In this document: piece by piece, positions 220 through 15,406 of the stretch | How the letters are laid out: every line of letters starts with the position of its first letter | Position numbering within the stretch: the stretch's first letter is position 1 | Origin: a bacterium | GTDB taxonomy: Bacteria; Patescibacteriota; Saccharimonadia; UBA4664; JBBRNT01 | DNA length: 63,648 nucleotides | Assembly: GCA_043767845.1 (NCBI GenBank) | Contig: JAYUFZ010000021.1 | Span: 1-63,648, forward strand | Direction of reading: 5' to 3' | Translations under genes and position numbers: made by a program | The notes under the pieces: generated by a model | What the model was told of the DNA's origin: nothing | The model's input: only the letters and a program-made list of their open reading frames with translations | Database searches by the model: none

Positions 220-2655
220 ATGGCTGACATGCATCCTAAAAATCACACGAGGACTAGTAAGGCAACTCCATCGAATACCCATGGCCGGCCTCAAGTCTTG
301 GGCCGGGCACGGGTCTTGCGATCTACGCCGTTTGGGCGGCGCGGAATTCTTGTAGCGCTCATTGCGTTGACGGCGGCTTTTGGGGTGTTGGCCGTGTTCC
401 GGAGCCGGGGTGCGACGACAGTCAACTACCAGTCGATTGCCCCATCTAATTTCTGCCCTGATACGGCAGATTACAACCGTACGAAACAGATATGGGCGGC
501 GGGCCAGTACCAGCAATTGAAAGATATGGCTGGCGACCCGGCAGGGAGTAACTGGGGTGACGCAGGCGGCTATTCCGTGCCAGAATCTACGGCTACAGCT
601 ATGGAAATGGCACTCGGCTGCGGCGATACCCAGCTTATCAGTGAGCTTGCTGATGTCTATCTTAACGCTGCAGGTACACTGCAGACGGATACGCTCAATA
701 CGACAGCCAGTAGAATGCGCTGGCAAAACAGCACCCAGGGGGAGCAGTTCCTGAGTTCCCAGCAGTGGTTCTACGGTCTGACAAGAACCTTGACTGTCAT
801 TGCGGCTACTCCAGCTGCACAGCGTACTGAACGCATGAATACCTTTGTCTCGACCTACCGGCCAGTTATTAGTGGCTATTACAAATGCTGGATATGGATA
901 GGCTGTAAAGAGTCGTCTGCCTCTAACTTTCACCCAGCCATCAGCTCCTTCATTAATGAGATGTACGATAATGAGAGCACTAAACTTTTTAAATATGGTT
1001 TTGACGACAGGTACCAGTGGCCGGTTGCAGCTGTGGCGCAGCTCTACATGGCCTACAAAGCCGACCCTTCAACCGTGGACCTCACAGGTAATAACTATGC
1101 TGTTACTGAGGCGCAGATGGTGCAGTTTATTAAAGATTCTGCAAAATTACTAAAACAACGCAGTTATCCTAAGCAGCTGACTAACTTACAGGGTCAAGCA
1201 GTCATAGGCTATGATTTTGACCAGGGTTTTCTAAACGACTACCAGACACAATATTCCGGCTACGAAGGCCCTTGCTTCCCGATTATTGAAGCAGCCGACC
1301 AAGCCAAGGCCAACGCTCTTGCTGGTGTTTTATCATATGGTCAAACAAACTCGTGTCAGACTGGCTACTATGTACCAATACCGCCAGAAGCCAGTTCGGG
1401 CTGGGATTTCTCGCATGCTTGGCGCATAATTCCTCTCTACACATCGATGTATACGGTACGGTCACTGGCTGGCACTGATTTCCCGGTGTACAGTGACATG
1501 CAAAAGCTGACGAATCAACTCGCTTACGCTATATCCAATAAAGATATGAATTACCCTAGGTTTAAAAACTTCTGGGGCGGACAGAATGGCTGGTACAGGC
1601 TGAACTATAGCGGTCGTGTGGGCTTCGGCTACGCACCTTGGGCCTACACGACTGCGTTTATGGAGAACGGTTTTGGGCTGCTAGCCGGCTTTAATCCGGA
1701 CTTGCGTGATATGACCCGACGGATACGCGATCTCTTAACCAGTACAAATGCAACTGACGTCGCCAAAGCACGTGATTATTACGCCTTTACCAGGACCGCT
1801 TTTGATTATACGGCCGATAGCTATAGGGATTACGCGACTAATCCGAATTCCAGGTATTGGTATTATTTCCTCGGTTCCGTTCCTCCGGCAAACTTTACCG
1901 TTGGGAGCGCTCCGGCGCCGACCCCCACCCCAACCGCCACGCCTGTCCCAACGCCGACCCCCACCCCAGCACCCACGGCCACACCGGTCGCGATAGCGGT
2001 TCCGCCGCTCGGCAGTGGCTGTCGTCGTATGGAGGCCGAAACTATGATACTCAGCGGTCCCACAGCCAGCACCTACAACCCTTATTACTCAGCATCGGGC
2101 TATGTAGAAAACTTCGGTGTCGCTGGAGCGTATATTGAAACCAGCCAAAGTATTACTACGCCCGGAACTTACACCATGACACTGCGCTATGGGGCTGGGG
2201 CCGCCGCCACCGACCGGGACATATATATTGATGGCACTAAGGTTACCACTTTGAACCTACCCCAAACCAGCACCTTTGCCAGCTGGGGTACGGCCACATC
2301 CAGTGCATTTGCTTTAAATTCTGGGTCGCACACCATCCGCATCCAGACCGCCGGGGGCGCGTATGCCAACCTAGACTACGGCGACCTATGTCTGGTCGGG
2401 ACCACAGTGACGCCAACGCCAGCGCCGACACCGGCTCCGACACCGACGACGGCCCCGACACCAACACCCATCCCAAATCCCTGCACCAAATCCGGCGATA
2501 CCAATTGCGACGGGAAAGTGAACAATATCGACCTCCAAGCTATCCTCTCCAACTACGGTAAGCGTACCTCGCTGCGTTCTTCTGGTGATCTGACCGGCGA
2601 TGGGGTAGTGAATATCTTTGATTTGTCACAGGTCTTGCAGAATTGGGGGAGATGA
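220..2655 (+). CDS. Secreted protein: signal/TM, unrecognised ~520-aa domain, PT linker, CBM6/CBM35-like beta-sandwich, PT linker, dockerin
   Basis: ORF track 211-2655, start moved to 220 by promoter spacing. Basic N-region plus hydrophobic helix ending FRSRGA; CBM-like 'RRMEAE...YTMTLRYGAG...IYIDG...IRIQT...NLDY'; dockerin loops DTNCDGKVNNID and DLTGDGVVNIFD. Confidence 0.85.
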   Translation: MADMHPKNHTRTSKATPSNTHGRPQVLGRARVLRSTPFGRRGILVALIALTAAFGVLAVFRSRGATTVNYQSIAPSNFCPDTADYNRTKQIWAAGQYQQLKDMAGDPAGSNWGDAGGYSVPESTATAMEMALGCGDTQLISELADVYLNAAGTLQTDTLNTTASRMRWQNSTQGEQFLSSQQWFYGLTRTLTVIAATPAAQRTERMNTFVSTYRPVISGYYKCWIWIGCKESSASNFHPAISSFINEMYDNESTKLFKYGFDDRYQWPVAAVAQLYMAYKADPSTVDLTGNNYAVTEAQMVQFIKDSAKLLKQRSYPKQLTNLQGQAVIGYDFDQGFLNDYQTQYSGYEGPCFPIIEAADQAKANALAGVLSYGQTNSCQTGYYVPIPPEASSGWDFSHAWRIIPLYTSMYTVRSLAGTDFPVYSDMQKLTNQLAYAISNKDMNYPRFKNFWGGQNGWYRLNYSGRVGFGYAPWAYTTAFMENGFGLLAGFNPDLRDMTRRIRDLLTSTNATDVAKARDYYAFTRTAFDYTADSYRDYATNPNSRYWYYFLGSVPPANFTVGSAPAPTPTPTATPVPTPTPTPAPTATPVAIAVPPLGSGCRRMEAETMILSGPTASTYNPYYSASGYVENFGVAGAYIETSQSITTPGTYTMTLRYGAGAAATDRDIYIDGTKVTTLNLPQTSTFASWGTATSSAFALNSGSHTIRIQTAGGAYANLDYGDLCLVGTTVTPTPAPTPAPTPTTAPTPTPIPNPCTKSGDTNCDGKVNNIDLQAILSNYGKRTSLRSSGDLTGDGVVNIFDLSQVLQNWGR

Positions 2656-5093
2656 AAATTATGGTAACTGGCAACCCAAAAAATAACAAAACTATCCGGA
2701 AAACGACCAGCCGAGGTGCAAAATCAGCTAGTCGAATATCGGTTTTATCGTCCATGCCATTTGGCCAGCGTGGGTTGCTCATAGCCTTCGTCATAGTGCT
2801 CGCCACCTTCGGCTTGAGAGTAATATTCAGGAGTAAGGCGGCTGTTTCAAGCTACCAAACCATTGCACCAACTGCATTCTGCCCAGACTCAGCAGACTAT
2901 ACCCGCGTCAAGCAGCTGTGGCCGGCGCTTAAGGATCAATATAAGGCCTGGGCTCCGAGTATGCCGTCGCCGAGCTGGGGCAGTAGTGCCGCTTATGTGT
3001 TGCCAGACTATCTGCTCAGCCCATTAGAAATGGCAGTCGGCTGTTCGGATACCGCAATGATAAGCGATATCGCCGAAATTTATTTGGCCGGATCGCAGTC
3101 CAGTGATTACCAGCCGCTTACAGATACTGACGGTGTGACCCGTCGCTACTGGAAAAGCGCCGAGGGCGAGCCAGATACTTCGGCGGCACAGTGGTATGGT
3201 GCCCTCAGCCGAACCCTAGCCGTGATTGCTGCCACCCCTGCGAGTCAACGAACATCCGTAATGAACCAATATGTCACCACATACAAGAGTACAATAGCTG
3301 GGTTTTACAAAAACCGGCTATACACTGCAACCAACTGGCAGGGTGGGGGCGCTGCCGCGTTTATAAACACCATGATTGCAAGGGACTATCTCAAGGAGGA
3401 TACCTATAGCCCGCCAGCTATTAGCAAATACTTATACGGTTTATCTCAAGTATATCTGGCCTACAAAGCCGACCCGAGTACTATCGACCTCGCGGGCAAC
3501 GGCTATCCACTTAGCGAGGCTACAATTGTCCAGACGCTAAAAGATGGTTCGAGGCTGCTCAAGCAACGCAGTACAGCTACTAATCTTACAAACTTGCAGG
3601 GCCGGCCTGTAACCGGCTATAACTACGAGGTTGGATATTGGCAAAACCTAGCAGATAACCAGTACTCCGAATACGATGGCCCGTGCTATCCGATACTCGA
3701 TGGTCCTACTCAAATGTCACTGGCCAGCAATCTCGCATCGTACCTGTCAAATGGCCAAGTCACGTCTTGCACAACTCCCGGCTATCGCGTCCCGATTGTA
3801 CGTAATTACGAAACCAGTTGGGACACCTCGCACATGTATATACCTATCATGTTTTGGCGGGCAATGTACACCATCCAGCCGCTCATTGGATCGGACTTCC
3901 CAATGTATAGCGACATGCAGAAATATGCCAACCAGCTGGCATATGGTGTATCAAATAAGGATATGAACTTGCCACGATTTAAAAATTATTGGAGTGGCAG
4001 CAACGGCTGGGTGAGGTTAAACTATAGTGCGCCAAATGCGCCCTGGCAAACATCGGCTGCCTTCATGGACAATGGACTAGGTGGTATGCTGGGTGGTTTT
4101 AATCCCGACCTGGTCACTATGACACGGCGGACGCGGGATATTATGAATAGTCCAACGGCAGCCGACCAGGCAGCTACTAAGTTCAATTATTCAGTTAAGG
4201 CTACTGACAAGGGTACAGCAGCTGAAGGCACGTTCAATATTTTAGAACCATATTATCGTAATTATGAAACTCCAAGTTCTTACTACTGGTTCCTTTTTCT
4301 CTCCTCCATTCCCCCAGCTAACTTTGTTGCACCCAATGGTAGTGGGGCAACGCCTGTGCCAACGCCGGTTCTGACGCCTGTGCCTACCGCAACGCCTGCC
4401 CCAAGCGCTCAGATTGTCCCAACGCTTGCTGTTGGCTGTCGTCGGATTGAGGCCGAGGGAATGGTTCGCGGGGCTGGCCCGACGCTTACTACTCAAAATC
4501 CGTACTATTCGAGCACTGGCTACGTTGAGAATTACGGGCCAGCAGGAGCTTACGTAGAAACGACCTATCTGGCGGCTAATGGTGGGACCTACAATTTTAC
4601 TCTGCGCTATGGGGCTGGCTATGGTGATACTAGCCGCGATGTATATCTTGATGGCACCAAGCTAACAAGCCTGCTGCTTACGGACAGTGGTTCATTCGCC
4701 ATCTGGACTACTGCCACGACCAGCCCGTTGCAATTGAGTGCCAGCACTCACACCATTCGCTTCCAAGTACCAGGCGGCACATATGCCAACCTCGACTATG
4801 TCGATGTCTGCCCCGTGAGCGTTGCAACACCTACACCGCCACCGACAGCAGCTCCAACTCCGACAGCAACTCCTGCTCTTACCCCAAGTCCCACACCAAC
4901 TTCAACACCGCTTCCCGTCTGTACTAAGTCTGGCGACGCCAACTGTGATGGCCGCGTAAACACGCTTGACCTTCAGGCTGTACTCTCCAGCTACGGCAAA
5001 CGCACAACCCTTCGTTCCCAGGGCGACCTAACCGGCGATGGGGTAGTCAACGTATTCGATCTCTCGCAGGTATTGCAGAACTGGGGCAAGTAA
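2652..5093 (+). CDS. Paralogous secreted protein: unknown domain, CBM6/35-like module, dockerin
   Basis: ATG 2652 overlaps the previous TGA (ATGA). Shares FCPD..DY, GC.D, D.SH and F.N.W.G.NGW.RLNY motifs and the RRIEAE CBM-like module with the first gene; dockerin DANCDGRVNTLD/DLTGDGVVNVFD. Confidence 0.85.
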   Translation: MKIMVTGNPKNNKTIRKTTSRGAKSASRISVLSSMPFGQRGLLIAFVIVLATFGLRVIFRSKAAVSSYQTIAPTAFCPDSADYTRVKQLWPALKDQYKAWAPSMPSPSWGSSAAYVLPDYLLSPLEMAVGCSDTAMISDIAEIYLAGSQSSDYQPLTDTDGVTRRYWKSAEGEPDTSAAQWYGALSRTLAVIAATPASQRTSVMNQYVTTYKSTIAGFYKNRLYTATNWQGGGAAAFINTMIARDYLKEDTYSPPAISKYLYGLSQVYLAYKADPSTIDLAGNGYPLSEATIVQTLKDGSRLLKQRSTATNLTNLQGRPVTGYNYEVGYWQNLADNQYSEYDGPCYPILDGPTQMSLASNLASYLSNGQVTSCTTPGYRVPIVRNYETSWDTSHMYIPIMFWRAMYTIQPLIGSDFPMYSDMQKYANQLAYGVSNKDMNLPRFKNYWSGSNGWVRLNYSAPNAPWQTSAAFMDNGLGGMLGGFNPDLVTMTRRTRDIMNSPTAADQAATKFNYSVKATDKGTAAEGTFNILEPYYRNYETPSSYYWFLFLSSIPPANFVAPNGSGATPVPTPVLTPVPTATPAPSAQIVPTLAVGCRRIEAEGMVRGAGPTLTTQNPYYSSTGYVENYGPAGAYVETTYLAANGGTYNFTLRYGAGYGDTSRDVYLDGTKLTSLLLTDSGSFAIWTTATTSPLQLSASTHTIRFQVPGGTYANLDYVDVCPVSVATPTPPPTAAPTPTATPALTPSPTPTSTPLPVCTKSGDANCDGRVNTLDLQAVLSSYGKRTTLRSQGDLTGDGVVNVFDLSQVLQNWGK
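4991..5086 (+). repeat. 96-bp perfect direct repeat, copy 1 (dockerin second half)
   Basis: Base-for-base identical to 7451-7546. Confidence 0.9.
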
Positions 5094-5181
5094 AGTGTAT
5101 AAACACTTTACTTGTATGACCATGTTTGATAGCGGAAGCTCTATTTATCGCTTCTCTACAGCTCTGTAGCGGCCTACTCGA

Positions 5182-5210
5182 TTGACGCAGCGTCACTGAA
5201 AGCATAAGCT
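5182..5210 (+). promoter_or_regulatory. Leaderless promoter
   Basis: TTGACG(5182-87), 17 nt, TAAGCT(5205-10), 6 nt, ATG 5217. Confidence 0.6.
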
Positions 5211-5216
5211 CTATAT

Positions 5217-7553
5217 ATGAAAGCTAAGCCCAAGTATATACGCGGCGGGCGCACATCCAAATCCGCTTTATTGGACAACGCCCGATTCAGCCGCCCGACT
5301 GTACTAGCCGCCGGCCTAATGGCCTCAGTGATTGGTATTTTTGTGGTGCTGAGGATTTTCGCCGCCTCGCCAATTAGTATTGCACCAGCCGGCTTCTGCC
5401 CAGAGGCAGGCGATTATACGCGTGTTCAACAAAGTTGGGCCACGAGTATGTACGCTCAAAACAAAGCCTACGCCGGCGATCCAGCCGGTACCGATTGGGG
5501 TAACGCCGCCGGCTACAATGTGCCAAGCGAAGTCAGCACGCTACTGGAAGCCGCGATTAGCTGCAAAGATAATAAAATGATTAGCGAAATAGCTGATGTG
5601 TACCTTAATGCGGCGGGTAGCCTGACGCCAGATAGCAATAATGCCGACCCCCGGCTGAAATGGGCAAATGCTACGCAAGGCGAACAATTTCTCAGCTCAC
5701 AACAGTGGTTTTATGGGCTGGCTAGGATGCTTGCGACGGTTGCTGCAATACCAGCCGCCGAGCGAACCGAACGCATGAACACCTTTGTGTCTACTTATCG
5801 GAGCGTTATCGCCGGCTATTACAAATGTTGGATTTGGGCTGGCTGCCAGGAATTTTCCGCGTCGTATCGGGTCCCGCCTTTAGCTACCTTCGTGAATACT
5901 ATGTATGATAACGTCGCCGACAAAAGTACCAATAAGTATGCCCTCGACGACCGCTATCAATGGCCAATGGCCGCCGTACCGCAGCTCTATCTTGCATTTA
6001 AAAACGACCCAACCGTGCTCGATACGGCCCAATATGCAATCACGGAAGCCCAGATGGCGCAATACATCAAAGATTCGGCTCGCCTGCTCAAGCAACGCAG
6101 CGTACCTGAACAGATCACCAATATGGCTGGCCAAACAGTGACTGGCTACAACTTTGACCCGGGCTTTTGGCGCGACTTGTCAGACAATCAATACTCAGGT
6201 TATAACGGCTACTGCTTCCCGATTATTGAGGCTGCCGATCAGACGGCTGCAAATGAGCTAGCTCGGGTTCTCTCAAAAGGGAGCGTCACGTCCTGCCAAA
6301 CGGGCTATGTAGTGCCGGTACCTCAAGATGACCGAACTTCCATGGACTTACCGCATGCTTGGCGATTTATCCCGATGTATACATCGCTCTACACAGTGCA
6401 ACCATTAGTCGGCAGCGATTTCCCAATGCTCAGCGATATGCAGAAGCTTGCCAACCAAGTGGCCTATGTGGTGTCGAACAAGGATGCAAACTATCCCAAG
6501 TTTCATAATTACTTTAGCGGTAGCAACGGCTGGTACCGCCCGAATTATGGTAATAATATTGGCTTTGGATTTGCGCCTTGGATGGCGGGGGCCAGCTTTG
6601 CTGACCAAGGCTGGGGACTGTTGTCGGCTTTCAACCCCGACCTGCGCGATATGACCCGGCGGGTGCGGGATATACTCAACAGCTCGTCACCATCGGACGC
6701 CGCCTTTGCCAACGATTATTATGCTATTACTTGGATATCCAAAGGTTTCACTATAAACGGCTATAAAGACTATGCGAGCAACCCGACGTCCCGCTATTGG
6801 GCGCACTTCTTAGCCTCGGTAGCACCAGCCGGATTTACTTTGGGAAATGTCACGACTCCCGTGCCAACTGCGACCCCCGCACCCACATCTTCGCCATCAC
6901 CAGCAGTCATTTTGAGCAATCCGGCCGCTGGATCAACGATTAGCGGCACTATCGCCAACCCTATGGCCAGTGTGTCGAATCTCGCAGGTGTTTCGAGCGT
7001 CCAATTCCTGCTCGATGGTAACTCGCGACGCTCCGAATCCACAGCCCCATATTGCGCCCTGGCCTACGGCGATGACGGTACGACCTGCGCCGGCAGCTGG
7101 GATACGCACTTTGACTTGCCGGATGCCAGCGCGTCGGCCTACTCACAATCGAGTGTGCCGATGCCAAACGGTGCACATGTCATTACAGTACGTGTCCTCT
7201 CGAGCACTGGCGCAACACTGCTGGAACAAAATACCAGTTTCACCGTGAATAATCTTGCCTCACCGCCAACAACTCCACTTCCGACAGCCACTCCTGTTCC
7301 CACGCCATCGCCGACAGTCCCTCCGACGAGCACTCCGGCGCCGACTTCTACGCCTTCACCGACCAATACCCCGCTCGTATGTACAAAGCTTGGTGACGTG
7401 AATTGTGACGGAAAAACTAATAACTCCGACTTACATATCGTGCTAGCCAACTACGGCAAACGCACAACCCTTCGTTCCCAGGGCGACCTAACCGGCGATG
7501 GGGTAGTCAACGTATTCGATCTCTCGCAGGTATTGCAGAACTGGGGTAAATGA
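5217..7553 (+). CDS. Third paralog: unknown domain, bacterial Ig-like module, dockerin
   Basis: N-terminal domain closely matches the 220-2655 protein (EQFLSSQQWFYGL, YYKCWIW.GC, DDRYQWP). Ig-like 'LSNPAAGSTISG...VSSVQFLLDG...NGAHVITVR...FTVNN'; C-terminal dockerin. Confidence 0.85.
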   Translation: MKAKPKYIRGGRTSKSALLDNARFSRPTVLAAGLMASVIGIFVVLRIFAASPISIAPAGFCPEAGDYTRVQQSWATSMYAQNKAYAGDPAGTDWGNAAGYNVPSEVSTLLEAAISCKDNKMISEIADVYLNAAGSLTPDSNNADPRLKWANATQGEQFLSSQQWFYGLARMLATVAAIPAAERTERMNTFVSTYRSVIAGYYKCWIWAGCQEFSASYRVPPLATFVNTMYDNVADKSTNKYALDDRYQWPMAAVPQLYLAFKNDPTVLDTAQYAITEAQMAQYIKDSARLLKQRSVPEQITNMAGQTVTGYNFDPGFWRDLSDNQYSGYNGYCFPIIEAADQTAANELARVLSKGSVTSCQTGYVVPVPQDDRTSMDLPHAWRFIPMYTSLYTVQPLVGSDFPMLSDMQKLANQVAYVVSNKDANYPKFHNYFSGSNGWYRPNYGNNIGFGFAPWMAGASFADQGWGLLSAFNPDLRDMTRRVRDILNSSSPSDAAFANDYYAITWISKGFTINGYKDYASNPTSRYWAHFLASVAPAGFTLGNVTTPVPTATPAPTSSPSPAVILSNPAAGSTISGTIANPMASVSNLAGVSSVQFLLDGNSRRSESTAPYCALAYGDDGTTCAGSWDTHFDLPDASASAYSQSSVPMPNGAHVITVRVLSSTGATLLEQNTSFTVNNLASPPTTPLPTATPVPTPSPTVPPTSTPAPTSTPSPTNTPLVCTKLGDVNCDGKTNNSDLHIVLANYGKRTTLRSQGDLTGDGVVNVFDLSQVLQNWGK
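7451..7546 (+). repeat. 96-bp perfect direct repeat, copy 2
   Basis: Base-for-base identical to 4991-5086. Confidence 0.9.
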
Positions 7554-9793
7554 CCGTGCCTAAATCTAAAGCAGGAAAACGGACCGAGCCATCCGCAGCG
7601 CCAAAGAAATTTCGTCCAAACTTGATCAAACCGTTCAGCAAGCATTCCTATGTTTATATCCTGATCGTGCTATTCGTGAGTTTTGGCCTATTCGCCATAT
7701 TTCGCAGCCGAGCAGCAGGCAATACAGTAACAGACGCGCCGTATTGCTCTTCCAAGGATACAATTCAAGCCAACGCCCTGTACCTGTCGTCATCTGGTAA
7801 TAATTCCAATCCTGGCACTTTTACGGCGCCTAAGTTTGATCTGCAAGGCTGGACGCCAGAAGCCGGAAAAACCATCTATCTGCGAGGGGGGAGTTATGCG
7901 AATTTCAATGCCGTGTTGTGGGGTCGAACGGTCACCGGAGCTACGAATAACATTGTCATTAGAAATTATCCTGGCGAGCTGCCGATACTGGCTGGAGGTG
8001 CTTCGTTCATGTCGCTTCAATCCTCGTCGGCTCACGACATCGTCGTGCATGGACTCTATTTTCAGTCCTACACCGACTCGGTTATATCCGGTGTAGCTGA
8101 CGGCCCGGCTGGTGGTTTACCGGGCAGGGCCGGGGGCCCGTACAATGTAACTATCGAATGCAGTACGTTTTACCGCACCACATCGGGCCATGGTATATAC
8201 CTCAGCGGTTATGGCGACGTCTATGATGCCGCCAGCAAATTGGCAAATCGTGTACATGATTGGACTATTAAATATAACAATTTTGACGGGCAAGACGATG
8301 CTGCTCCGTGGTACGTTGACGCGCTTGGCGTCAAGCACACCCTAGCCGGCATCCACGGATACCATGTCAACGACGCCTACAATATCCAGATCGACCACAA
8401 CCAGTTTAGCCAAAACCATTATGGTATTCTGGTCTCTACCGATGGACAGAATAATTGGACGATCGAGAACAATTCGTTCTACAACAACACCGTCGCTATG
8501 GGGGTCACTGATTACACAGAACGATGCCCCTATTTGAACGACCCAAACGACCCAAATTCCGGGCGCTGCATGAACTGGACCGACTTTCACGACGTCATAA
8601 TTCGCAAGAATGTGGTGCATTCACTGGCTGGGCAAGTTGCCTTCAAGGCCGAGTCGACCTGGCTGTACAATCAAATGCTCACTTCGGCACCCTATCCAAA
8701 ACCGCTGGCATTCATAGAATCGAATAATACCTTTTACGGCGGATCGTGCCTGGTGCGCTGGAATGGGGTGGCGGGCAGCGCAGGCACTTGCTTCACCGAC
8801 CTATCTTCCTATCAATCGGCGCTCAACGGGCTGGGAGCGCCGATTGATCCGGCTCAAGGCAGTGGCGACTTGGCAATCGACCCGCAGTTTGTGGATGCTG
8901 CACAGGGTAACTTTACGACCAATAACGCCCAAATTAATGCCAACGGTTGGGGGTGCTGCTCAGTTGGCGGTCCCATAGCTACACCAACGCCTTCTCCAGC
9001 CCCATCTCCCATTACACCGACTCCCACGCCGACTCCGGCGGGTATCACAAATGTTCCATGCACTGCCAGCTGCCTATGGCCTGTTTCGCTTGCACCGGCC
9101 AGTGAGCTCTCAGCTGGCCAAGCTGTAACCGTCGGCGTTCGTTGGTCTTCGTCTGCGCCGGGCGCTGTCACGGCAATTCGTTGGTACAAATCGCCGGGAG
9201 ATAGTGGCCAGCATACCGTGAGCCTGTGGTCGAGCGGTGGCGGGCTCTTGTCTCAAGCGACATCTACCGCAGAGACTTCAGCCGGTTGGCAGCAAACTGG
9301 TCTCGCTTCACCCATCAACATTGCGGCGCAGTCCATGTACGTAGCTTCCGTTTTCAACCCTACAGGTGCCTTTAGCTACACGACGGGGGGACTGGCCGCA
9401 GCTCAAACGACTGGCCCATTGACCGCACCAAATAGCGTAAATGGCATATATAGCTATGGCACCTCAGCCACTTTCCCGACCCTTAGCTACCAAGCTACTA
9501 ATTATTTTGTCGATGTTGCCTTTAGTGCTTCGATTGCTACCCCTACACCTGCTCCGACGGTCGTGCCGACTCCCGCGCCAACACCCACTCCGACGCCTGT
9601 ACCAACACCGCTTCCTTCCTGCACCAAGTCTGGCGATGCTAACTGTGATGGTCGCGTAAACTCGCTCGACCTCCAAGCTGTACTTTCGAATTACGGCAAG
9701 CGCACAACCATTCGTGGATCGGGCGATCTAACTGGTGATGGGGTAGTCAACGTATTCGACCTCTCGCAGGTTTTACGGAACTGGGGCAAATAA
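7550..9793 (+). CDS. Secreted right-handed beta-helix (pectin-lyase-like) protein with DUF4082-like module and dockerin
   Basis: 'LYLSSSGNNSNPGT...GKTIYLRGGSY' opening and 'I.I.NN.F' coils typical of parallel beta-helices; 'VTVGVRW...GAVTAIRWYK...HTVSLWS..G.LL...GWQ' matches DUF4082; dockerin at C-terminus; ATGA overlap with upstream stop. Confidence 0.8.
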   Translation: MTVPKSKAGKRTEPSAAPKKFRPNLIKPFSKHSYVYILIVLFVSFGLFAIFRSRAAGNTVTDAPYCSSKDTIQANALYLSSSGNNSNPGTFTAPKFDLQGWTPEAGKTIYLRGGSYANFNAVLWGRTVTGATNNIVIRNYPGELPILAGGASFMSLQSSSAHDIVVHGLYFQSYTDSVISGVADGPAGGLPGRAGGPYNVTIECSTFYRTTSGHGIYLSGYGDVYDAASKLANRVHDWTIKYNNFDGQDDAAPWYVDALGVKHTLAGIHGYHVNDAYNIQIDHNQFSQNHYGILVSTDGQNNWTIENNSFYNNTVAMGVTDYTERCPYLNDPNDPNSGRCMNWTDFHDVIIRKNVVHSLAGQVAFKAESTWLYNQMLTSAPYPKPLAFIESNNTFYGGSCLVRWNGVAGSAGTCFTDLSSYQSALNGLGAPIDPAQGSGDLAIDPQFVDAAQGNFTTNNAQINANGWGCCSVGGPIATPTPSPAPSPITPTPTPTPAGITNVPCTASCLWPVSLAPASELSAGQAVTVGVRWSSSAPGAVTAIRWYKSPGDSGQHTVSLWSSGGGLLSQATSTAETSAGWQQTGLASPINIAAQSMYVASVFNPTGAFSYTTGGLAAAQTTGPLTAPNSVNGIYSYGTSATFPTLSYQATNYFVDVAFSASIATPTPAPTVVPTPAPTPTPTPVPTPLPSCTKSGDANCDGRVNSLDLQAVLSNYGKRTTIRGSGDLTGDGVVNVFDLSQVLRNWGK

Positions 9794-9951: not shown

Positions 9952-12090
9952 ATGAAAACTAATTCCAAATACATCCGGGGCGGCAAAATCGCAAAGCCAG
10001 CGCTCATGAGCCGCGCCCCATTCCAGCAACCGACGGTTATAGCCGCAGGCCTCATGGCCTCGGTAATCGGTATTTTTGTGATACTACGGATATTTGCTGC
10101 CACAAATACTTATTACGCGAGCCCGAGTGGAAGTGGCAGTACCTGCACCAGTTCCGCACCATGTGACTTTTTGACAGCCTTGGACCAAGTTTTTGCCGGC
10201 GGCGGCGAAATGGTTGCCAAAGATGGGACTTACAGTTTCAGCAACTATCTCTATGGCGTGAACAATAGCGTTACAAATTCAGTCACCATACGCTCAGAAA
10301 CCAAGTACGGAGCGAAATTAATTTTTGCAGGTGCGGCGGCCGGCAATTTTGCGACCTACTTTTTCGGCAACAACATTACCATGAAAGATTTTGACGTCAG
10401 CGGGTCGGTGCTAGCCGGCGGGATCAATATGGAGAATGGCAGCGGATCGATTATTGGTAATCGGGTGCATGATATTTCGACAGGCGTTTGCAGCCAGACA
10501 GGCGGTATCGAGGTGGGCAAGCGAGTTAATGCAAACGGGCCAAACCCAAATGCGGCTCCCGGGCCATACCTGATCGATAGCAACGTGGTCTACAATATTG
10601 GTGACGCCAGCATGACCAGCTGCAACACGCTACAAGGTATTTACACCAGCGTTGAAGATGCCCTCGTCCAAAACAATGTAATATCGAATGTTGCATCCTA
10701 CTGCCTGCATTCCTGGCACGATACGGCCACAGTGAATTATCGAAATAATAGCATCGACCACTGTGGTTCGGGTGGCATTTTGGTCGGCAGTGGTGACGTC
10801 GTGGTGAGCCAGCACATCGTCCGGGGTCGGATCGATAATAATACTGTTCGCGACAGCGCTTACTGTATTCGCGAATACGCTGGCGAGATTGGCGCTATTA
10901 CCTATCATAATAACAACTGCTACAATAACTCGCTAAATACCCCAGAAATGTTGGCCCGCAACAGAGATGGTGCGATTAATTACCAGGTAGGGCTGACGCA
11001 GGTCAATCCGGGCTATATGAACTATCCCAGCGGCCTAGACCCGCTAGCAAATGGCGGCAACTATGCGCTCGCTGCTGGTAGCGGTCTGATCAACGCTGGC
11101 TACAACGGTAATGCGCCCACGAGCGACATAATGGGCGGGGCTCGACCGAACGGGGCTACAGTAGATGTTGGTGCATACGAATATGGCTCGACTAGTACGA
11201 GCACCACACCAACCCCAGCAGCTACTGCCTCGCCAGCTCCGACTCCAACCCCCAATCAGCAGGCTCAGGCGGCATTCAAGTTGCACTCAGTACCTGGCAG
11301 AATTGAAGCCGAGGATTTCGATATTGGTGGCGAAGGAGTCGCATATCACGATGCCGACCCTACACAGACTGGCAATAATACCAGCTACCGGGCTGGCGAG
11401 GGAGTGGGTATTAGCGATGAGACCGCTGGTACCGATAATGGTAGCCGTGTTGTTGGACGGATCCGGGCCGGCGAGTGGACAGAGTACACTGTGAATATGC
11501 CTTCAACTGATGCTAGCTATAGCTTCACCATGCGGCTAGCCAATCCAACGGCTGGCGGCGTTATCAAACTGCAAATAGGCGACGGTGGGCTGCTCGACCT
11601 GGCCTCGATCATTGTGCCGAATACCGGCGCTTGGGAGACATTTCAGACGACTACCCCGGTCGTGGTTAGCTTACCCGCTGGGCAGCATATAGTCCATCTA
11701 TTATATTTGACCGAAGCGGCTGGCGGGGGAGTGGCCGATGTAAACTGGTTTGAGTTTACTTCAACGAATCAACCAACCCCTACGCCGTCCCCGACGGCCA
11801 CCCCAGCGCCGAGTATCACTCCAAAGCCGACTCCCACGCCGACCCCACTCACTACAACTAAGCCAACAGCGACGCCCGTGCCTACAGCTGTTCCAACTCC
11901 AACTCCCACGCCCACCTGCACCAAACTAGGTGACGTAAACTGTGATGGCAAAGTAAACAATGGTGACCTAAACACCGTTCTCCATAACTATGGTAAGAGT
12001 GTAACTACCCGTGCCCAGGGTGACCTTACTGGTGATGGTGTGGTTAACATCTTCGACCTTTCTCAGGTGTTACAGAACTGGGGTCGGTAA
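9952..12090 (+). CDS. Secreted beta-helix protein with choice-of-anchor-Q-like motif, CBM6-like module and dockerin
   Basis: 'YYASPSGSGSTCTSSAPC', NN-rich coils, 'DIMGGARPNG..VDVGAYEY', CBM6-like 'PGRIEAEDFD.GGEGVAYHD...GEWTEYTV...DVNWFEF', dockerin DVNCDGKVNNGD/DLTGDGVVNIFD. Confidence 0.82.
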   Translation: MKTNSKYIRGGKIAKPALMSRAPFQQPTVIAAGLMASVIGIFVILRIFAATNTYYASPSGSGSTCTSSAPCDFLTALDQVFAGGGEMVAKDGTYSFSNYLYGVNNSVTNSVTIRSETKYGAKLIFAGAAAGNFATYFFGNNITMKDFDVSGSVLAGGINMENGSGSIIGNRVHDISTGVCSQTGGIEVGKRVNANGPNPNAAPGPYLIDSNVVYNIGDASMTSCNTLQGIYTSVEDALVQNNVISNVASYCLHSWHDTATVNYRNNSIDHCGSGGILVGSGDVVVSQHIVRGRIDNNTVRDSAYCIREYAGEIGAITYHNNNCYNNSLNTPEMLARNRDGAINYQVGLTQVNPGYMNYPSGLDPLANGGNYALAAGSGLINAGYNGNAPTSDIMGGARPNGATVDVGAYEYGSTSTSTTPTPAATASPAPTPTPNQQAQAAFKLHSVPGRIEAEDFDIGGEGVAYHDADPTQTGNNTSYRAGEGVGISDETAGTDNGSRVVGRIRAGEWTEYTVNMPSTDASYSFTMRLANPTAGGVIKLQIGDGGLLDLASIIVPNTGAWETFQTTTPVVVSLPAGQHIVHLLYLTEAAGGGVADVNWFEFTSTNQPTPTPSPTATPAPSITPKPTPTPTPLTTTKPTATPVPTAVPTPTPTPTCTKLGDVNCDGKVNNGDLNTVLHNYGKSVTTRAQGDLTGDGVVNIFDLSQVLQNWGR

Positions 12091-12801: not shown

Positions 12802-12834
12802 TATGCTAATGATTAAGAGCCGATTGTGAGCATT

Positions 12835-14193
12835 ATGAAAAAACACCTTGGATACCGCATATTTTTTGTTGCTTCGACCCTGAGTGCGCTATTATTATCA
12901 ACTGTTGCCCAGGCTGCTACAAATACCATGGCGTTGTCGCCGGCCTCAAGAAGCATGCAGATAAATACACTCACAAGTTTTAATGTCATAGGTAATAGCA
13001 CAGACACTATCCAGGCTTATGAGGTGAATGTTACTTTTGACCCGACCAAGTTACAATACCAAGCCTCAACAACTGGTGATGGCCCCTGTAGTTCTAGCTT
13101 CTTCCCGTCAGTTGAAACCGTTACCAGTGGGTATGTGGACTTCGCCTGCGTCGCCCTGCCTGGTTTTACAGGCCAGCAAACTGTCGCCACGCTGACCTTC
13201 AAGGCGCTGGTCGGAAGCGGTTCAACTCCTATCTCCTGGGGCCCAGATACCCACATGTCCACTTCGACCACGGCCGATGTCAAGACTGGTATCGCTGGCG
13301 CAACTGTCAGCTTCACGCCAGTGCCAACACCAACCCCCACCCCACCACCCCCAACGCCTACCCCCAAACCGACAGCTACTCCAAAGCCAACAGCGACACC
13401 GGTGCCTACCCCCGTGCCAACCGCCACCCCTAAGCCGGGAACTACTCTAACGCCAGGACCAGCCTCAACTGCTACGCCGTCGCCCAAACCCGTCACACCA
13501 GCTCCTGCAACTGCCACGCCAAAGCCAGCGGCAACCACACCTACCGAAACACCTTTAGTCACTCCGCCAAAACCCCAAATCACCACCTTAGTGGCCATCA
13601 AGGTCAAAGACCCGAAAGGTCAGCCCGTTGAAGGCGCCACCGTCACTCTCGGTGACAAAAAAGCTACTACAGATGCCACAGGTGTAGCCGGATTCATAGG
13701 TATCGTGCCAGGCAAATACAATGTGAAGATTACCAGCGCTAAGCTCGGGTCAATTTCAAAGAGCGTGACCGTACTGGCAAATGACCAAAGCGATGTTCAG
13801 ACCTTCAATATGGTACTCGGTGAATCCTCGACAACTATCTGGCTCTATTGGACACTCGGCGCACTGGGATTGATGATTATCTTAACCGGTATCGTGCTGG
13901 CCATCCGCCGACGCTCTCAGTCAACTCGCCTCGTCGATGTACCAGGTATGACTGCTAGCCACCTAATAAACAGCGCCAACGACGCTCCAATGGTCATTAA
14001 CCTGCCACAGCCAGCCGCACCAGCTCCAACACCGCCCCCGGTCACGCCAACCCCAACTCCTACCCAAGTCATGCCGACTACTCCCGTGACACCTGAGCCT
14101 ATCGTGATAAAGCCCGTGACTCCAGCCGATCCGGCCACGAAGCCAGCCACCGATTCACAAACCAACGACTCGTCCACACCGCCCACGGCCTAG
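12835..14193 (+). CDS. Membrane-anchored cohesin-domain protein (signal peptide, cohesin, long PT linker, carboxypeptidase-regulatory-like beta domain, TM, Pro-rich tail)
   Basis: Signal ending AQA-A; cohesin-like 'MALSPAS...FNV...IQAYEVNVTFDPTKLQY...G.VDF...GQQTVATLTFKAL..GST.ISW'; 'VKDPKGQPVEGATVTL...TDATG...PGKYNVKI'; TM IWLYWTLGALGLMIILTGIVLAI followed by RRR. Confidence 0.75.
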   Translation: MKKHLGYRIFFVASTLSALLLSTVAQAATNTMALSPASRSMQINTLTSFNVIGNSTDTIQAYEVNVTFDPTKLQYQASTTGDGPCSSSFFPSVETVTSGYVDFACVALPGFTGQQTVATLTFKALVGSGSTPISWGPDTHMSTSTTADVKTGIAGATVSFTPVPTPTPTPPPPTPTPKPTATPKPTATPVPTPVPTATPKPGTTLTPGPASTATPSPKPVTPAPATATPKPAATTPTETPLVTPPKPQITTLVAIKVKDPKGQPVEGATVTLGDKKATTDATGVAGFIGIVPGKYNVKITSAKLGSISKSVTVLANDQSDVQTFNMVLGESSTTIWLYWTLGALGLMIILTGIVLAIRRRSQSTRLVDVPGMTASHLINSANDAPMVINLPQPAAPAPTPPPVTPTPTPTQVMPTTPVTPEPIVIKPVTPADPATKPATDSQTNDSSTPPTA

Positions 14194-14211
14194 CTAGCAG
14201 CATTATAACTA

Positions 14212-14240
14212 TTGACATGTAAAGGTACTTATGCTACTAT
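14212..14240 (+). promoter_or_regulatory. Strong sigma70 promoter with extended -10
   Basis: TTGACA(14212-17), 17 nt ending TGc, TACTAT(14235-40). Confidence 0.7.
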
Positions 14241-14381
14241 ACGTGGCATCTCTGGTGGGCAGTGATTTCGAACAAAAAATGCTCATATAAGCATGAGCTT
14301 TTTGGTTGATTTGCTAATGAGACTACTTATGCTTTCGAGCATACTTAGCATAGATCATAATGTAATTCGAAGGACAGTATC

Positions 14382-14600
14382 ATGGCTGGAACAAAGAACG
14401 GCGGTATCAAAGCTGCTATCACAAACAAGCAACGTTATGGTATGAATTTCTACGAAAATATTGGCCGTGCTGGTGGTACTAAAAGCCGCAACGGTGGTTT
14501 TGCAAAAAACCGCGCCCTGGCTGTAGAAGCTGGTCGCCGTGGTGGTTTGGCCTCACGCCGCCGCAAAGCCGAGCAAGCTGAAACTCAGCAAGCTGCTTAA
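14382..14600 (+). CDS. Small KGG-repeat general-stress-type protein
   Basis: Gly/Lys/Arg-rich 'FYENIGRAGG...GFAKNRALAVEAGRRGG', resembling KGG/stress-induced repeat proteins; SD-like gaagga upstream. Confidence 0.7.
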   Translation: MAGTKNGGIKAAITNKQRYGMNFYENIGRAGGTKSRNGGFAKNRALAVEAGRRGGLASRRRKAEQAETQQAA

Positions 14601-14627
14601 TTTTCGTTAGATTTCATCTCTAACCTC

Positions 14628-14655
14628 AAAAAATCCCGCCTAGGCGGGATTTTTT
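14628..14655. terminator. Bidirectional intrinsic terminator
   Basis: aaaaaatcccgcc-ta-ggcgggatttttt between convergent genes. Confidence 0.85.
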
Positions 14656-14728
14656 GTGTTGATAATGGCAGATGGGGTCTCCTGGGGAGGAGATGGTTGC
14701 ACAGATTGGACGGTCGGCAAAGATATGG

Positions 14729-15406
14729 CTACTTTTTGCCAATAAAACGTATTAAGTTGTGCACGCCTTTTTCGTTGTCTTTGTAACTTTCACCGGAGTT
14801 ATCAAGCAGAATACTATCAAAATCCGAGGTGAGTGTAGCTAGCGAAGTAGTATCAAAGAAGCGCTTGGTTTTGCCGTCTGCTTGGTAGCAATCGGCCTCG
14901 AGCATTACACCTTTGCCAAACTCGGGATCTTGTTTCGAGTTAACTAGAGTCGCTAGCAGGCCGCCTTCTTTGAGTACGCGCTTGATCTCATCAAAAATCT
15001 CGGTAGTTGCCTGGTAACTGAAATAGTGTAGCGATAAGTGCGCATAAACTACATCAAAACTGGAGCTAGGGAAGGGGAATGGTTGGCGCAAGTCGAGTGG
15101 CTGGTATGAGATGGTTTCGGTAATAGTCTTATCAGTTCTCGAGCTTGCTATGTCGAGGGCGCTTTGCTCTATATCGGTAGAGGTTACTTGATATCCAAGC
15201 TCGGCGAAGTAGCGACTATCTTGACCTTGGCCGGCGCCGAGCTCTAATATGGAGCCCGTTTTGGGAAAGTGAGGCACAACGGTCTCAGCAAAAATAGACG
15301 GCTTATATAGCCAATTCTCGCCTTTATATTTGTCATGTAGGGCAGCCCAAACATTAGTCATAGGTGTTTCAGCGATTAAGTGATTAACTTGGACGGGCCA
15401 AGGCAC
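14729..15406 (-). CDS. Class I SAM-dependent methyltransferase
   Basis: Motif I 'ILELGAGQGQDS', 'FDVVYAHLSLHYF', 'LKEGG'. Real start may be the internal MTNVW ATG. Confidence 0.85.
   Translation of the reverse strand: MPWPVQVNHLIAETPMTNVWAALHDKYKGENWLYKPSIFAETVVPHFPKTGSILELGAGQGQDSRYFAELGYQVTSTDIEQSALDIASSRTDKTITETISYQPLDLRQPFPFPSSSFDVVYAHLSLHYFSYQATTEIFDEIKRVLKEGGLLATLVNSKQDPEFGKGVMLEADCYQADGKTKRFFDTTSLATLTSDFDSILLDNSGESYKDNEKGVHNLIRFIGKK

Follow-up and report, generated by a model that had tools for sequence, protein, structure and literature searches.

Three paralogs of an unannotated helical domain in a dockerin and cohesin gene cluster of a Saccharimonadia bacterium: a predicted family of exported glycan-cleaving enzymes

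The window analysed here is a stretch of 63,648 nucleotides from a Saccharimonadia bacterium (GenBank assembly GCA_043767845.1, contig JAYUFZ010000021.1). The listing of its open reading frames (ORFs) contains three consecutive intact ORFs on the forward strand, to which all coordinates below refer, encoding modular paralogous proteins, hereafter paralogs 1, 2 and 3. Their shared N-terminal domain represents a family without annotation, without a detectable characterised sequence relative and without a significant structural neighbour. The paralog 1 gene (positions 211–2655) encodes 814 amino acids with Pfam matches to CBM_35 (2e-13) and Dockerin_1 (3.6e-5). Its product begins with a basic N-terminus and a hydrophobic signal or anchor segment, followed by the unassigned helical domain (418–1905, residues 70–565), a Pro/Thr-rich (PT) linker, a CBM35/CBM6 carbohydrate-binding module (CBM; 2026–2385), a second PT linker and a type-I dockerin (2494–2634) with the two calcium-loop repeats DTNCDGKVN and DLTGDGVVN. 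The paralog 2 gene (2643–5093), whose start overlaps the stop of paralog 1, encodes 816 amino acids from the TTG at 2643, or 810 if translation begins at the ATG at 2661 chosen by the gene caller (P0005). It repeats the architecture of paralog 1, CBM35 included, and carries a divergent copy of the helical domain (2850–4328). In paralog 3 (5217–7553, 778 amino acids; helical domain at 5376–6845), a Big_7 Ig-like domain (1e-6) stands where paralogs 1 and 2 have the CBM35. The N-termini of all three proteins are basic and continue into a single hydrophobic segment, either a Sec signal or an anchor.

The CBM35/CBM6 modules of paralogs 1 and 2 scored 51 and 45.5 bits against a Pfam cut-off of 28. 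The nearest PDB sequences to that of paralog 1 are the CBM35 of Xyn30D (4qb1, E 1e-10), 2w3j (5e-8), 2w47, 2w46 and 2vzp, all of which we take to be uronic-acid-binding CBM35s. Modules of this specificity were reportedly described by Montanier and co-workers in 2009 and by Sainz-Polo and co-workers in 2014. The dockerins of paralogs 1, 2 and 3 scored 24.3, 22.9 and 20.8 bits, respectively, so that the last lies just below the Dockerin_1 cut-off of 22.9; both D-x-N/D-x-DG loops are seen in all five dockerin proteins encoded in the window, which identifies them as type-I dockerins. An earlier note on this DNA had described a domain of about 520 residues carried on dockerins. The dockerins are present, while the domain is shorter, at about 490 residues, and is not joined to the dockerin directly, since a CBM35 or Big_7 module intervenes between two PT linkers.

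The three N-terminal domains align as true paralogs over about 490 residues. Relative to paralog 1, identity across this domain is 47% for paralog 2 and 60% for paralog 3, and 53% and 55% over the full length in a three-way MAFFT alignment; phmmer E-values of 8e-123 and 1e-200 exclude chance likeness. The motifs picked out earlier by eye (FCP..DY, E.A.[GS]C.D, QW[FY]...R.L, GPC[FY]PI/GYCFPI, D[FTL][SP]H and F.N[FY][WF].G.NGW.R.NY) were all found in the alignment, and DDRYQWP is indeed present in paralogs 1 and 3, with another sequence in its place in paralog 2. Scanning of all six frames of the window with a hidden Markov model (HMM) of the family detected exactly three copies. An origin of the triplication in the assembly was rejected, the copies being far too diverged for mis-assembled repeats. 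At 47–60% protein identity synonymous sites are saturated, which makes dN/dS between the paralogs unsuitable.

Searches of the three paralogs against Pfam, NCBIfam and PDB sequences found nothing on the core. The same was true of Pfam for 50 full-length relatives and, at E ≤ 10, for 21 domain sequences; NCBIfam gave no match for ten distant relatives, and profile searches of all PDB sequences returned dockerin matches or noise only. Thus, no Pfam-A or NCBIfam model scored above its curated cut-off across residues ~70–565. Where names are given to relatives in NCBI or IMG, they read "hypothetical protein", and literature searches on Saccharibacteria with dockerins, cohesins or carbohydrate-active enzymes (CAZymes) turned up no account of this family. 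These results agree with the view of the earlier note that the family is uncharacterised. Membership in the heparinase II/III-like lyases (polysaccharide lyase (PL) families of the PL12/15/17/21 type) was considered and rejected: the Pfam model Hepar_II_III matched no member among the 50 full-length and 21 domain sequences, and hhalign comparison of the family profile with heparinase-II/III-like proteins encoded beside relatives gave a probability of 0.2.

In word-index homolog searches the PT linkers overwhelmed the index, so that hardly any relatives came up; the family surfaced only when 1.84 billion cluster representatives were searched exhaustively with HMMER. This search recovered 447 family clusters at E ≤ 1e-3, of which 312 remained at E ≤ 1e-10 and 37 at E ≤ 1e-30, so the domain is no orphan and the family is far from rare. 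Scanning of species-representative genomes confirmed 118 family loci. Carriers were found among Acidimicrobiia, Actinomycetota, Planctomycetota, delta-, beta- and gammaproteobacteria, Bacteroidota, Verrucomicrobia, Gemmatimonadetes, Elusimicrobia, Omnitrophota, Saccharimonadales, Methanosarcinales and DPANN archaea, and include the cultured Rhodanobacter sp. DHB23, Noviherbaspirillum spp., Daejeonella sp. and Parapedobacter sp. The family recurs in ultra-small, host-dependent lineages, namely DPANN, the candidate phyla radiation (CPR) and Omnitrophota, with loci in Pacearchaeota/Woesearchaeota (L006, L012, L030, L047), Omnitrophota (L010), Saccharimonadales (L041) and CPR-like contigs (L084/L085); some copies in such lineages bear dockerin-like tails (P0011, P0153).

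On the maximum likelihood (ML) tree, paralogs 1 and 3 are sisters (support 97), and all three paralogs form one clade (support 100) with a single further protein, P0003, from the metagenome-assembled genome (MAG) GCA_964572315.1. P0003 is 47–49% identical to the paralogs, and its gene is followed by those of two β-helix dockerin proteins (Pel9A-like and RHGA/pectate-lyase-like), the same synteny as in the window. The next-nearest sequence is P0007, followed by a clade including Acidimicrobiia sequences; the rooting of the tree is arbitrary, and the support at the Acidimicrobiia-like relationship is 88. Leaving aside the unplaced P0007, the sequences closest to the Saccharibacteria clade thus belong to an Acidimicrobiia-like clade containing an Acidimicrobiia MAG (L003) and an Actinomycetota MAG (L007). 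Since Actinobacteria serve as hosts for cultured Saccharibacteria (Wang et al. 2023, PMC10633639), this placement gives a hint, but only a hint, that the Saccharibacteria copies were acquired from a host lineage.

Conservation was scored against 120 other cluster representatives, and 43 positions were at least 80% conserved. In paralog 1 numbering, H402 (the His of D.SH) and W461 are present in 100% of sequences, D399 (the Asp of D.SH) in 98%, R463 in 97%, D266 (the second Asp of DDRY) and N453 in 96%, Q185 and R405 in 94%, Y121 and Q436 in 93%, E178 in 91%, N459 in 90%, R317 and Y439 in 88%, and D337 in 84%. The DDRY and D.SH residues singled out in the earlier note are therefore among the most conserved of the family. 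Paralog 1 keeps 40 of the 43 positions, including E178, D266, D399, H402, R405, N453, W461 and R463, paralog 3 keeps 38, P0003 34, and paralog 2 only 31.

Paralog 2 stands apart in other respects as well. Its branch on the ML tree is the longest of the three (0.67, compared with 0.25 for paralog 1 and 0.31 for paralog 3), and its robust losses are R405 to I, W227 to R, Y462 to V and W270 to Y. A replacement of D266 by S has high posterior probability in the profile alignment, but it is alignment-dependent, because the three-sequence MAFFT alignment pairs EDTYSPP of paralog 2 with DDRYQWP. D399, H402 and R463 are retained, and the gene is still an intact ORF with a CBM35 and a dockerin. The loss of R405, W227, Y462, W270 and probably D266 implies that paralog 2 probably has a changed specificity or acts as a non-catalytic binder, in line with the earlier suggestion that this copy is altered.

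Cysteines vary within the family. Most members of the wider family have a Cys pair, GWGC ... YCN, that is absent from the clade of the window, while this clade and the protein P0010 share an insertion of about 25 residues after the CFPI motif with a Cys pair of its own (C-FPI ... S-C). A further pair, KCWIW.GC, occurs only in paralogs 1 and 3. The sequences suggest alternative disulfide patterns in the window clade and the wider family.

Two AlphaFold2 models were built, one for residues 70–570 of paralog 1 from a 21-sequence alignment (model 1) and one for a Rhodanobacter homolog from 83 sequences (model 2). The mean predicted local distance difference test (pLDDT) scores were 88.5 and 94.3, and the predicted TM-score (pTM) was 0.91 for each. 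Both models are almost entirely helical, with 13–15 helices and a few β-hairpins. Foldseek comparison of both models with PDB found nothing at E ≤ 1e-3, and one model compared with the viral structures of BFVD had no significant match; the domain is accordingly filed under no glycoside hydrolase (GH) or PL family. The list for model 1 consists mostly of (α/α)6 CAZymes, none of them significant: GH127 (7exw, E 0.039), GH162 (6imu), PL17 (8bdd, probability 0.66), GH144, PL8, GH15-like enzymes and trehalase, the GH162 and GH144 entries being β-1,2-glucanases. The matches of highest probability for model 2 were GH105 (4ce7, 0.66, TMt 0.42), PL33 (8r6z, 0.57) and the GH63 enzyme YgjK (0.54). The earlier note had guessed an (α/α)-type fold, and with two confident all-helical models whose best, though non-significant, matches are (α/α)6 GH and PL enzymes, this guess remains plausible; the structural comparison that it had called for yielded no confident match to a characterised family, nor did the Pfam search. 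Judging by the models, the fold is plausibly a divergent α/α toroid, which would be closed and would have a cleft. According to the DSSP strings of both models, E178/Q185, D266 and D399-H402-R405 lie at the N-termini of successive helices, while the NGWYR motif sits in a long loop. As modelled, polar residues at helix N-termini and in a loop would match a pattern typical of toroid active sites.

The genomic settings of relatives were analysed within up to 8 kb per side at 80 genome loci, in which ORFs were clustered and the recurrent ones annotated. Genes for GT4 glycosyltransferases (GTs), Wzx flippase, WbpM-type dehydratase or UDP-sugar dehydrogenase were found in 14 of 54 long loci, with the family gene typically located between two GT4 genes in the same orientation. 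This setting, a biosynthesis cluster of the Wzx/Wzy type for surface polysaccharides, was observed in Noviherbaspirillum, Accumulibacter, Ideonella, Comamonas, Rhodanobacter, Syntrophaceae and Smithella. For example, the family gene of Noviherbaspirillum sp. ST 5-3 adjoins genes for a Wzy-like protein, GT4, two UDP-sugar dehydrogenases, WbpM and a DegT aminotransferase, and in an Acidimicrobiia MAG two family copies flank a GT2, Wzy, GT2, GT4 series. The UDP-sugar dehydrogenases present in several clusters imply uronic-acid polymers. Some Noviherbaspirillum exopolysaccharide (EPS) clusters (L054, L058) contain two family copies, located in L058 at 7770–9293 and 13471–15297; in the second copy (604–608 amino acids) the domain is preceded by a lipoprotein-like leader and a long linker of Pro-Ala repeats.

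A different setting was found in five Bacteroidota loci, of Chitinophagaceae/Terrimonas/Sphingobacteriales, that resemble polysaccharide utilisation loci (PULs; L044, L046, L052, L059, L067). They share one gene order: SusC, SusD, an unknown protein (479 amino acids), isochorismatase, the family protein, two amidohydrolases (amidohydrolase_2), a Gfo/Idh/MocA oxidoreductase with a twin-arginine translocation (TAT) signal, and a heparinase-II/III-like protein. In a Gemmatimonadetes locus the family gene lies alongside three genes for NosD β-helix proteins, an echo of the window. Signal peptides are present on relatives, and their accessory modules include Laminin_G_3, a sialidase-N lectin, BACON_2, a type IX secretion system (T9SS) sorting tail, CBM35/6, Big_7 and dockerin.

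In the window, the three paralog genes are followed by two more genes for dockerin proteins. The fourth dockerin protein (7550–9793), whose start overlaps the stop of paralog 3, combines a NosD/right-handed β-helix, DUF4082 and a dockerin according to Pfam; the fifth (9952–12090) has an N-terminal domain without a Pfam match, in which β-helix-like repeats are visible by eye, a CBM6 and a dockerin. Sequence searches of PDB found no match for these two β-helix passengers, so they are of no help in defining the substrate. Further downstream, a gene at 12826–14193 encodes a candidate anchor with a Pfam Cohesin match (27.1 bits against a cut-off of 24.1), composed of a signal peptide, one cohesin, a PT linker, an Ig-like domain (CarboxypepD_reg), a transmembrane (TM) helix and a Pro-rich cytoplasmic tail. 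It is a minimal membrane-anchored "scaffoldin" with one cohesin, unlike the multi-cohesin scaffoldins of cellulosomes. The presence of both domains in the window suggests that its dockerins and this cohesin would pair.

With a confidence a little better than even, we predict that the domain serves as catalytic module in a new exported family that cleaves acidic bacterial surface polysaccharides. The evidence that the proteins are glycan-active, as the earlier note had supposed, is indirect and consists of the CBM35, the dockerin, the β-helix neighbours and the relatives in EPS/O-antigen clusters and PULs. Acidic polysaccharides are the predicted substrate class because of the uronic-acid precursor genes, the heparinase-like neighbour in PULs, the β-helix partners and a CBM35 closest to uronic-acid binders. 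The ~490-residue domain would be an all-helical, α/α-toroid-like module cutting polysaccharides that contain uronic acids. Triplicated in this genome, each copy would be built like a cellulosomal enzyme from a Sec leader, a catalytic module, a CBM35 or Ig domain and a type-I dockerin. Together with the two β-helix dockerin proteins, the three copies would dock on the membrane-anchored single-cohesin protein encoded 700 bp downstream, which would equip the cell surface with a small set of glycan-cutting proteins, plausibly directed against cell-envelope or EPS polymers of the host or the environment.

The proposed active site would comprise Y121, E178, Q185, D266, D399-x-S-H402-x-x-R405, Q436, Y439 and N453 ... 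N459-G-W461-Y-R463, placed at the N-termini of alternate helices and in the one long loop. Two chemistries may be considered: acid/base hydrolysis by D266/E178 with D399, or β-elimination in which H402 or a Tyr would serve as base/acid while Arg and Asn neutralise the carboxylate. We lean slightly towards a uronate-directed mechanism.

Several observations weigh against the prediction of a glycan-cleaving family. The likeness to (α/α)6 enzymes is not significant, with a best E of 0.039 and TM-scores of at most 0.42, and α-solenoids unrelated to glycans also appear among the Foldseek matches of both models. The conserved residue set fits a hydrolase and a lyase alike, the position in biosynthesis clusters suits a polymer-modifying enzyme equally well, and an obvious glycan context was found in only about one third of the long loci. 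Moreover, the gene of P0010, a CPR-like relative, adjoins that of a class-A penicillin-binding protein (PBP), and a recently created CAZy family for which neither a structure nor a Pfam model exists may already include the domain.

The enzyme could alternatively modify polysaccharides, for example as a polymer-level uronate C5-epimerase or an AGE-type epimerase/isomerase on an α/α scaffold, remodelling the surface glycans of its own cell or of the host. Many relatives are indeed encoded within Wzx/Wzy clusters between GT genes, in the same orientation, His, Arg and Tyr abound among the conserved residues, as in α/α-fold epimerases, and alginate C5-epimerases have the β-helix fold of the NosD-type neighbours. 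However, the family also occurs in catabolic SusC/SusD loci beside a heparinase-II/III-like protein, its fusions to CBMs, dockerins and T9SS tails are typical of secreted degradative enzymes, the gene cluster in the window lacks a GT or flippase, and no profile likeness to any epimerase family was found. We regard a modifying enzyme as improbable.

A shade less probable again is a non-catalytic helical repeat that binds glycans or proteins in an adhesin- or lectin-like way for host attachment, with the conserved residues forming a binding site only. The invariant Asp-x-x-His and the Arg, Asn, Glu and Asp residues, conserved at 90% or more in hundreds of bacterial and archaeal clusters, are more typical of catalysis, as are the operons with GTs and PULs of enzymes, and dedicated binding modules (CBM35, Big_7) are already there. 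Nevertheless, the earlier note had itself allowed for a binder, the solenoids among the Foldseek matches include the non-enzymatic TPR, ARM and importins, and paralog 2 remains intact despite the loss of several conserved polar residues; in addition, either adhesion or degradation has been the speculated role of Saccharibacteria envelope proteins with dockerin or lectin domains (Wang et al. 2023, PMC10633639). A cell-wall lytic enzyme for peptidoglycan or a secondary wall polymer, lytic-transglycosylase-like and α-superhelical, that breaches the host wall or remodels its own is very improbable, since SLT70, at rank 13 of the model 1 Foldseek list, has a probability of only 0.03 and a TM-score of 0.10, no lysozyme-like or SLT signal was found by Pfam or profile, the CBM35 and the EPS and PUL contexts favour polysaccharides other than peptidoglycan, and the PBP context, in which the gene of P0010, bearing the Cys-containing insertion of the window clade, directly follows that of the PBP on a compact CPR-like contig, was seen once.

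The predicted glycan-cleaving family would be of a known kind, namely a modular, dockerin-borne CAZyme of the α/α type, while the family itself is new to annotation. With the (α/α)6 CAZymes (GH105/GH88 unsaturated uronyl hydrolases, GH127, GH144/GH162 and PL8/PL17/PL33), which include the best Foldseek matches of both models, it shares, as modelled, an all-helical build of ~450–500 residues and 13–15 helices with conserved polar residues at the N-termini of alternate helices; its accessory modules and genomic settings (PULs and EPS loci) are of like kind as well. It differs from them in its own motifs (GWD-x-SH-x-RR, NGWYRVNY and YCN-x-x-x-D-x-x-W) and β-hairpin insertions, and membership is unproven, with no match reaching E ≤ 1e-3 and no sequence or profile likeness.

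For the relatives in biosynthesis clusters, AlgL (PL5) of the alginate operon and BcsZ (GH8) of the cellulose synthase operon offer a comparison, both being polymer-cleaving α/α-barrel enzymes encoded within EPS clusters. The relatives are likewise exported, α-helical proteins of about 40–55 kDa encoded among GT, Wzx and Wzy genes, and the uronic-acid polymers implied in several of their clusters are a feature shared with alginate. No homology to AlgL or BcsZ is detectable, however, and the copies in the window belong to a dockerin/cohesin cluster rather than a biosynthesis cluster. By analogy, we propose that the family would play a role like that of AlgL and BcsZ in biosynthesis operons and like that of GH and PL enzymes in PULs.

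Non-cellulosomal cohesin and dockerin modules are said, in work by Peer and co-workers of 2009, to occur across the three domains of life. The order of a catalytic module, PT linker, CBM, PT linker and dockerin is the same as in cellulosomal enzymes of Clostridia and Ruminococci, and the row of five dockerin genes beside a cohesin gene is a further likeness. Here, in contrast, the bacterium is a member of Saccharimonadia with a reduced genome, the anchor combines a single cohesin with a C-terminal TM helix instead of being a multi-cohesin scaffoldin with S-layer homology (SLH) or sortase anchoring, no cellulase or hemicellulase family is present in the window, and the dockerin scores lie at the Pfam threshold. 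Within Saccharibacteria, an essential dockerin-domain envelope protein, SEML1_0315, is known from Candidatus Southlakia epibionticum, and its authors speculate that it targets glycans of the host cell for adhesion or degradation (Wang et al. 2023, PMC10633639). What it has in common with the proteins of the window is a dockerin on a Saccharibacteria envelope protein.

One could extend the prediction into a full scenario, which we consider speculative and unlikely as a whole. The domain would found a new GH or PL family whose variant of the toroid lacks any solved relative, ancestrally a "housekeeping" depolymerase of acidic surface polysaccharides made by Wzx/Wzy systems in many phyla. Saccharibacteria would have taken it from the Actinomycetota that they parasitise, as suggested by the Acidimicrobiia-like position of the nearest non-CPR clade, then triplicated it and mounted it on a minimal surface system of cohesin and dockerins; paralogs 1 and 3 would cut the envelope glycan of the host and the degenerate paralog 2 would hold it, making the system a determinant of host attachment or host range.

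If the family is enzymatic, a function would become available for more than 400 clusters of "hypothetical proteins" that are encoded in O-antigen/EPS clusters and in PULs across many phyla, in the form of a new GH or PL family with an unsolved variant of the fold. The hypothesis is testable, because the cultured Rhodanobacter, Noviherbaspirillum and Daejeonella carry the family. For the biology of Saccharibacteria, these proteins are specific candidates for the surface enzymes that are presumed to target host glycans, and the gene cluster would represent a compact, genetically linked cohesin–dockerin display system outside the cellulolytic Firmicutes.

The dockerins and leaders of the cluster have features of their own. 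The five dockerins of the window (2455–2655, 4890–5093, 7350–7553, 9590–9793 and 11890–12090) are nearly identical among themselves, and a related MAG (L001, genes ending at 2679, 4478 and 7045) likewise has three near-identical dockerins, in which the preceding ~20 residues are identical too. Between the two genomes the dockerins differ strongly. Likeness within a genome combined with unlikeness between genomes suggests concerted evolution, possibly by gene conversion, of the dockerins with the cognate cohesin. The leaders of paralog 3 and the fifth dockerin protein (5217–5370 and 9952–10105) are almost the same, MK.K.KYIRGG...PTV.AAGLMASVIGIF V.LRIFAA, despite the unrelated passenger domains, while paralogs 1 and 2 have a common leader distinct from this one.

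The remaining genes of the window are of the housekeeping type (IF-2, S1, PriA, SecD, RecJ, RelA, HisRS and RNR). The best named relatives of the IF-2 belong to Saccharimonadia/Saccharimonadales, at 66–69% identity. Public sequencing runs that contain this stretch are metagenomes of sediment and freshwater sediment.

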